64,000 nucleotides of DNA from Escherichia coli (GTDB lineage: Bacteria; Pseudomonadota; Gammaproteobacteria; Enterobacterales; Enterobacteriaceae): NCBI RefSeq assembly GCF_030013205.1, contig NZ_CP122648.1; one strand, given 5' to 3'. The notes below the pieces were generated by a model. The model saw nothing but the letters and a program-made list of their open reading frames with translations, made no database searches and was not told the origin of the DNA. This document shows positions 10,706 to 10,844 of the stretch, piece after piece (the stretch's first letter is position 1; each line of letters starts with the position of its first letter). A program made the position numbers and the translations under genes.

Positions 10706-10844
10706 ATATTCCTTGTAACAACAGGGATAAACCGAACTAGTTAAAGTTTTTATTATGTTCCCTGCATCAGCGGGGATAAACCGGACTTGTTATCATTTTT
10801 TAAGTTGTCGAACTTATGTTCCCCACGTCAGCGGGGATAACCAT
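10706..10844 (+). repeat. degenerate CRISPR remnant
   Basis: repeat-like units ending ggataaaccg at about 10706..10734, atgttccctgcatcagcggggataaaccg at 10755..10783 and atgttccccacgtcagcggggataaccat at 10816..10844; the last two are separated by a 32-bp spacer. Confidence 0.7.

Follow-up and report, generated by a model that had tools for sequence, protein, structure and literature searches.

The block at 10706-10844 of the 64,000-nucleotide stretch of Escherichia coli DNA analysed here (the window) is very probably the array CRISPR2.2, which is dead for adaptation but is not decaying, and its low diversity suggests that selection acts within approximately 10600-10844. CRISPR2.2 is already known and is a catalogued part of the CRISPR-II locus, and as a feature it is ordinary; its only wider interest lies in the coding-like conservation of an array that has no leader and degenerate repeats, in a part of the E. 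coli chromosome that is among the most diverse. No mention of its conservation relative to neutral sites is found in PMC3903273, PMC4489801 or PMC3737337. If the suggestion of selection is true, a retired CRISPR array has been kept for another purpose.

The CRISPR-II locus, located between ygcE and ygcF (queE), contains CRISPR2.2 and CRISPR2.3, which are 0.5 kb apart (PMC3903273), while leaders adjoin only CRISPR2.1 and CRISPR2.3 (PMC3903273, PMC3737337), and CRISPR2.2 has been defined with three repeats and two invariable spacers (PMC4489801). The array names, which PMC3903273, PMC4489801 and PMC3737337 also use, follow Diez-Villasenor et al. 2010; in PMC4524480 the name 'CRISPR2.2' was given to a different (I-F) array. 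The block of the window has the same anatomy, with three repeats (R1 to R3) and two invariable spacers (S1 and S2), and the same position, since it starts 454 bp past the last CRISPR2.3 repeat, which ends at 10251 (the original prediction had placed it about 450 bp beyond the intact array), and leaves 45 bp between its end and the stop codon of ygcE. Compared with the K-12 CRISPR2.2, it is identical at 137 of 139 positions and shows no structural difference; two of its alleles are rare, namely C at position 10719 in the loop of R1 and A at position 10825 in the stem of R3. The array is present, once per chromosome, in approximately 4,036-4,156 of 5,426 complete E. coli genomes, and it is presumably the 'CRISPR2b' of the STEC typing papers. 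The RefSeq annotation (PGAP) labels CRISPR2.3 as a CRISPR and leaves CRISPR2.2 unannotated, which is probably why the latter looks like a discovery in raw sequence, and no Rfam family matches it. Spotting an array that annotation pipelines skip avoids reporting it as a new remnant.

The features of the locus are collected in Table 1. The wider region corresponds to the E. coli order relA-eno-queE ... ygcE ... cas ..., and cas genes cognate to the CRISPR2.2 repeats exist in the same genome, in the type I-E operon of the window. CRISPR2.3 differs between strains in array length and spacer number, and its final repeat in the window has a GTCA loop and a ...CCA end. The GC-rich hairpin between R3 and ygcE varies among haplotypes in its loop and flanks and keeps its stem (the window has a G-U for a G-C pair); it probably serves as a transcript end for both the convergent ygcE transcript and those running in the CRISPR direction. 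Around the cas operon, three further observations can be recorded. The repeat types differ, with GTG... in the cas-adjacent array and GAG... in CRISPR2.3. The cas-adjacent array ends in a decayed repeat (GAATTCCCCGCCCCTGCGGTAGAACTCCC, 19/29) at 36380-36408, which keeps the 61-bp phase of the full repeats and was missed by the repeat model. Finally, Cas3 (27295-29994) scores 419.7 bits against the K-12-type equivalog NF007248, under its cut-off of 569, and the window therefore carries the other cas-E variant.

Table 1. Coordinates of the CRISPR-II locus and related features in the window
Feature	Position	Strand	Description and evidence
queE (ygcF)	8969-9640	+	Upstream flank of the CRISPR-II locus; ORF and RefSeq annotation of the orthologous locus
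Leader 2.3	9641-9978	+	nhmmer I-E leader profile, E 4e-22; literature (PMC3903273)
CRISPR2.3	9979-10251	+	Intact type I-E array, 5 repeats and 4 spacers
AT-rich 0.45-kb interval	10252-10705		454 bp between CRISPR2.3 and CRISPR2.2; GC 16-36%
CRISPR2.2	10706-10844	+	R1-S1-R2-S2-R3, same orientation as the active arrays
R1	10706-10734	+	Most degenerate repeat (ATATTCCTTGTAACAACAGGGATAAACCG); 19/29 to consensus; covariance model 18.7 bits, E 0.0016
S1	10735-10754	+	20-nt 'spacer' (AACTAGTTAAAGTTTTTATT), under the 32-nt norm
R2	10755-10783	+	Best-kept repeat (ATGTTCCCTGCATCAGCGGGGATAAACCG); 24/29; covariance model 37.7 bits, E 8e-10
S2	10784-10815	+	Canonical 32-nt spacer (GACTTGTTATCATTTTTTAAGTTGTCGAACTT)
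R3	10816-10844	+	Terminal repeat (ATGTTCCCCACGTCAGCGGGGATAACCAT); 22/29; covariance model 28.2 bits, E 1e-6
GC-rich hairpin	10858-10886		Between R3 and the ygcE stop; predicted 9-bp stem, fold of 10690-10895
ygcE	10890-12368	-	FGGY-family carbohydrate kinase, 492 aa, convergent with the arrays; ORF and RefSeq annotation
Type I-E cas operon	27295-35856	+	Complete: cas3, cse1, cse2, cas7, cas5, cas6e, cas1, cas2; NCBIfam matches, 8/8 proteins
CRISPR2.1	35953-36347	+	Array 3' of the cas operon; repeats

The repeat units of CRISPR2.2 are of type I-E (cluster 2) both in sequence and in hairpin. When ungapped matches to the 29-nt consensus GAGTTCCCCGCGCCAGCGGGGATAAACCG were counted over the approximately 128,000 positions of both strands of the window, the highest unrelated position reached 18/29, and the 12-mer CAGCGGGGATAA, with at most one mismatch, occurred 14 times against 0.34 expected, all of the occurrences being in the arrays or in R2 and R3. 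A covariance model built from 16 enterobacterial I-E repeat variants with the 7-bp/4-nt hairpin, none of them from 10706-10844, was applied unfiltered to the full window, both strands included, and its top background match scored 11.6 bits (E 0.36), against E-values of 8e-10, 1e-6 and 0.0016 within the block. Chance similarity in AT-rich intergenic DNA, which the original prediction had itself named as what would overturn it, is thus excluded by the match counts, the 12-mer and the covariance model, and its residual probability is negligible: R1 taken alone, at 19/29, barely exceeds the background maximum, but the units share the strand of the arrays, follow the 61-bp phase and keep the hairpin in register, and R3 is orthologous to the terminal repeats of E. 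albertii and B2 strains. The 'two to three' decayed units that had been proposed are three, R1 being the weakest yet significant. Between the starts of R2 and R3 lie 61 bp (29 + 32), the period of the intact array, whereas R1 precedes R2 by 49 bp, which leaves the 20-nt S1 off that period. Neither match counting nor the unfiltered covariance model found additional repeat units in 10252-10705.

Each of the three repeats folds, in register, into the canonical I-E hairpin of 7 bp and a 4-nt loop. R1 has 10 differences from the consensus, five of them in the stem, namely both bases of two pairs (C-G to U-A) and one base that leaves a G-U pair, and still retains all 7 pairs (P ~0.01-0.02 in simulations), so that its stem is rebuilt as CCUUGU/ACAGGG with a predicted energy of -7.9 kcal/mol; its last 11 nt on the 3' side, GGGATAAACCG, are intact. 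The R2 hairpin (-12.1 kcal/mol) has one G-U in the stem, and both R1 and R2 hold the exact 5'-handle sequence AUAAACCG. On the minus strand these G-U pairs would turn into A-C mismatches, and the structure is therefore one that an RNA of the CRISPR direction would form. In R3 the loop is the GTCA variant and one nucleotide is deleted from the 3' part (in ATAAACC), and the G-to-A change at 10825, private to the window, breaks one pair of a stem that is perfect in K-12. Population variants at 10763 (R2) and 10825 (R3) break stems, and the maintenance of the hairpins is therefore not absolute. S1 and S2 differ, with a weak resemblance in that S1 matches the first 20 nt of S2 at 12 of 20 positions, with p=0.02 at the fixed offset and 0.23 over all offsets.

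CRISPR2.2 is dead for adaptation, as it has no recognizable leader and shows no spacer gain in the genomes examined. An nhmmer profile of 11 enterobacterial I-E leaders found none in 10252-10705 even at E<=100, and the same profile recovers both true leaders in the window (E 4e-22 and 2e-19). Earlier hints of a leader had been a local alignment to leader 2.3 (z ~3.8) and a leader-like appearance, by eye, of the 100 bp before R1; the AT-rich interval as a decayed leader was rejected on the result of the profile. Longer arrays in other E. coli, which the original prediction had suggested looking for, were not found: every copy in 16 genomes and 66 metagenome contigs has at most three repeats, being either this array or a shorter derivative of it, and the strain variants are repeat-to-repeat deletions only, the two spacers being common to all carriers. 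The proposal of an array eroded rather than active therefore holds in one half and fails in the other: it is inactive, having no leader upstream of R1 and the same content in more than 4,000 genomes, but it is not eroding, given hairpins that are kept and a diversity approximately 12-fold below synonymous sites. That its spacers are the oldest acquisitions of the locus is plausible, considering that they are leader-distal, beside the ancestral R3, and common to all carriers, though the searches gave no protospacer to bear it out and the 20-nt S1 is atypical as a spacer.

In many Enterobacteriaceae, queE and ygcE are convergent and approximately 40-140 bp apart, with no CRISPR between them. In E. 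albertii, a leader homologous to leader 2.3 is followed by two repeat-spacer units and a terminal repeat, whose 3' part and flank (GGGGATAACCATTTAGGTATGTTCAGGCCGGGCAG) equal those of R3, and the B2 strain Nissle 1917 shows an E. albertii-like layout with a single spacer. The published 'CRISPR2.2-3' is the single fused array of B2 E. coli (PMC2941450). CRISPR2.2-3 of B2 (LF82, Nissle 1917) and the E. albertii array have in common with the window the 3' part of R3, GGGGATAACCATT, and the flank as far as ygcE; they differ from it by their other spacers and in being without the 0.45-kb interval, R1, S1 and R2. Because its end and flank match these terminal repeats, R3 is the ancestral, 3'-degenerate repeat that closes the queE-ygcE array. 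The 0.45-kb stretch and R1-S1-R2-S2 are confined to non-B2 E. coli. The single array of the outgroup E. albertii and of B2 strains favours an insertion origin of the two-array layout, and present-day fusions (NZ_CP027325.1) indicate that deletions to one array arise easily. The B2 spacer (AACGGCGCGG...) was found only in 231 B2-type genomes and not in non-B2 CRISPR2.3 arrays, where its survival would have pointed to an origin of the B2 arrays by deletion. The AT-rich interval has no match in 80 enterobacterial queE loci, plasmids or phages, and its derivation from a mobile element or another species was rejected for that reason.

Repeat-to-repeat recombination of CRISPR2.3 with CRISPR2.2 units has given rise to fused or shortened arrays in a few strains. 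Deletion or fusion derivatives are seen in NZ_CP027325.1, NZ_AP042591.1 and four metagenome contigs; the non-B2 strain 2013C-4830, in which ygcE is also a pseudogene, has the arrangement leader-R-S2-R3, a direct fusion derivative, S2 is lost in strain OkiPb01699 and three metagenome contigs, and S1 in one contig.

Several further observations concern alleles of the locus. NZ_JAATUR010000008.1 ('E. coli' SCPM-O-B-8794, a GTDB species representative) has no CRISPR repeat between queE and ygcE (5673-5810), and its gap contains only approximately 140 bp of unrelated sequence and a GC hairpin. Very deep alleles exist at the queE-ygcE locus within E. coli, and the leader 2.3 of K-12 is nearer to that of E. 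albertii (93.2%) than to that of the window (90.3%). The haplotype of the window is rare (20-49 of 5,426 genomes), and two strains that match it identically, K_EC180 and CFSAN018748, are swine isolates. K_EC180 (NZ_CP062203.1) has a 648-bp interval identical to that of the window, its CRISPR2.3 has 7 repeats against 5 here, and RefSeq marks its ygcE and yqcE as frameshifted pseudogenes; from the differences in CRISPR2.3 and in pseudogenes, it is a close relative at this locus and not the same strain.

CRISPR2.2 and approximately 100 bp upstream of it are not decaying and evolve as slowly as the non-synonymous positions of ygcE. Between the window and K-12, divergence amounts to 6.2% in queE, 9.7% in leader 2.3, 8.4% in the AT-rich stretch and 8.9% in the 45-bp gap after R3, and to 1.4% (2/139) in CRISPR2.2. 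Among 11 diverse haplotypes, chosen for their divergence in the AT-rich stretch, nucleotide diversity (pi) is 0.011 in CRISPR2.2, 0.133 at ygcE four-fold sites and 0.0087 at ygcE codon positions 1 and 2, with 0.074 in 10252-10500, 0.021 in 10501-10705 and 0.071 in the 45-bp gap; the comparison of CRISPR2.2 with the four-fold sites gives p=3e-14 (Fisher test), and S1-R2-S2 has one segregating site in 81. Even the functional leader 2.3 is more variable than CRISPR2.2, with pi of 0.064 overall and 0.03-0.04 in its proximal 100 bp. Because the 11 haplotypes had been chosen for divergence in the AT-rich stretch, the test was repeated on an independent sample of 66 metagenome contigs anchored on the invariant 32-mer 10601-10632, in which pi is 0.0077 in CRISPR2.2 (partly from misaligned S2-deletion variants), 0.106 at four-fold sites, 0.0068 at positions 1 and 2 and 0.029 in the gap (p=3e-11, Fisher test). 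CRISPR2.2 diversity is thus approximately 12-fold under that of the four-fold sites and equal to that of codon positions 1 and 2.

The same pattern extends to complete genomes, where identity to K-12 of at least 99% is found for CRISPR2.2 in 3,869 of 4,156 genomes and for the adjacent gap and ygcE 3' end in 2,217 of 5,367, and S2 is identical in 4,048 of 4,062 carrier genomes. S1 has no segregating site in either the 11 haplotypes or the 66 contigs, and in these samples common variants number six or seven in the repeats and none in the spacers. The zone of low diversity is not confined to the CRISPR-like part and begins upstream of R1, near 10500-10600, with approximately 10600-10705 as conserved as CRISPR2.2 and 10321-10500 hypervariable (pi 0.047-0.10). 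In the otherwise nearly invariant segment 10645-10688, the window has seven substitutions in 44 bp that are absent from the other 10 haplotypes, four of them being rare singletons in the metagenome sample, and this grouping resembles the trace of a short recombination event or of clustered mutation.

These measurements can be read in different ways. The original prediction saw in the block a neutral remnant, a functionless dead array eroding by mutation, and this reading accommodates the degenerate repeats (19-24/29), the S1 cut to 20 nt, the lack of a leader, of spacer turnover and of a known target, and the silence of PGAP on any CRISPR at this site. It is nevertheless disfavoured, and we regard it as unlikely, because in two independent samples the diversity is approximately 12-fold under that of four-fold sites and at the non-synonymous level, the block is less diverse than a functional leader and differs from K-12 by 1.4% where the flanks differ by 8-10%, and the hairpins are kept in three of three repeats. 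Population history, rather than selection, offers a possible though minor explanation in which the DNA of the insert (10252-10815) is exchanged among its carriers only, or its right half was carried by a recent recombination sweep; queE, the leader and ygcE, for their part, hold deep alleles that may come from other lineages. In agreement with this, the divergence of queE is 6% within E. coli compared with 8-9% from E. albertii, the leader of K-12 resembles that of E. albertii more than that of the window, diversity climbs at the 3' end of R3, exactly where homology with insert-less loci starts, and haplotypes are mosaic, two of them (L087 and L091) having the right flank of the window and not the left. 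The low diversity could indeed partly reflect gene flow, as the flanks can recombine with alleles of insert-less lineages and insert-specific DNA cannot. However, the left half of the insert (10321-10500, pi 0.047-0.10) is left unaccounted for by such a history, its high diversity meaning that the insert as a whole is old, and if a sweep limited to approximately 250-340 bp had passed through every non-B2 phylogroup, a selected variant would have to be assumed in any case.

Two other readings keep selection and place it elsewhere. A small protein gene on the + strand at 10645-10740 (31 aa, MKIDKVRFALSFILRTSSVVNIPCNNRDKPN), overlapping R1, would make R1 conserved as coding sequence, and the reading frame is intact in both the window (ATG start) and K-12 (GTG start), with three consecutive differences between them (10662, 10665, 10668) that are synonymous third positions. 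This is nonetheless highly improbable: the frame lacks a Shine-Dalgarno sequence, the peptide has no exact counterpart among 15 billion predicted proteins, the variants of the 66 contigs are mostly second-position and non-synonymous and include one nonsense change and indels, and the conservation of R2-S2 would remain unexplained. Frames opening at the ATG of R2 (10755-10988) and of R3 (10816-11022) were rejected as well, since the polymorphisms are out of step with them. A role on the opposite strand, with the block in the ygcE 3' UTR and its hairpins stabilizing or terminating the ygcE mRNA in a REP-like manner, is improbable too, even though the convergent ygcE ends 45 bp from R3, a GC hairpin comes directly after its stop codon and palindromic repeats fold on both strands; on the minus strand the G-U pairs of the R1 and R2 stems turn into A-C mismatches, making the + strand structures the better ones, no U-tract follows any minus-strand hairpin, and the invariance of the spacers is left unexplained.

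Selection on the array and its upstream neighbourhood is therefore the reading we prefer, and the conservation points to an RNA or DNA function retained by CRISPR2.2, with something in approximately 10600-10844 being maintained. How it might work can be sketched from the sequence. Most likely, transcription would cross the block in the CRISPR direction, either as read-through out of CRISPR2.3 or under a weak promoter within the AT-rich stretch, although consensus scans of 10252-10860 for promoters and terminators yielded none on the + strand. Cas6e could then cut the transcript at R2 and R3 and release a canonical 61-nt crRNA with S2, for which the sequence prerequisites are present (canonical R2 and R3 hairpins, the AUAAACCG handle before S2, and cas6e in the window); S2 may in that case act as an 'innate' guide, with a putative target that is possibly only partly complementary. 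Alternatively, the RNA together with the GC hairpin at 10858-10886 might fold into a structure that buffers the converging CRISPR2.3 and ygcE transcripts from each other or serves as a 3'-end element between them. A co-opted mini-array under purifying selection for its RNA, either as a fixed, species-wide S2 crRNA or as an insulator with the GC hairpin, is offered tentatively, and we give it a low probability. Retention of CRISPR2.2 in cas-less strains, e.g. BL21 derivatives (PMC3737337), counts against a strictly Cas-dependent role, and so do the missing target in phages, plasmids, IMG/VR and E. coli chromosomes and the missing promoter in the consensus scan.

The searches for targets of S2 gave no protospacer in phages, plasmids or IMG/VR and no second genomic site in E. 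coli genomes. Its matches in phages and plasmids are at chance level only (24/27, E 0.3) or are self matches in chromosomes filed as plasmids, and those in IMG/VR are a contig of E. coli chromosome and two PAM-less matches of 21-22/32. PLSDB holds three E. coli chromosomes of 4.8-4.9 Mb filed as plasmids (NZ_OL790696.1, NZ_CP141089.1 and NZ_CP134663.1), and the 'viral' contig IMGVR_UViG_2531839665_000019 is E. coli chromosome including the CRISPR-II locus; such misfiled entries consequently produce false 'protospacer' matches for chromosomal spacers.

Among known systems, the cas-less E. coli I-F CRISPR3/4 'anti-CRISPR' arrays (Touchon and Rocha 2010, PMC2886076) are also short, with spacers conserved among strains, and selection was proposed for these spacers (PMC2886076). 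CRISPR3/4 differ from CRISPR2.2 in repeat type (I-F) and locus, and their spacers correspond to cas genes, while no match is detectable for either S1 or S2. CRISPR2.2 can also be compared with degenerate terminal repeats in general, as R3 is likewise degenerate at its 3' end, and its GTCA loop recurs within the window in the final repeats of CRISPR2.3 and CRISPR2.1, and outside it in Salmonella CRISPR2. Unlike ordinary terminal repeats, R3 is preceded by two more degenerate units and by a long AT-rich stretch before the active array.
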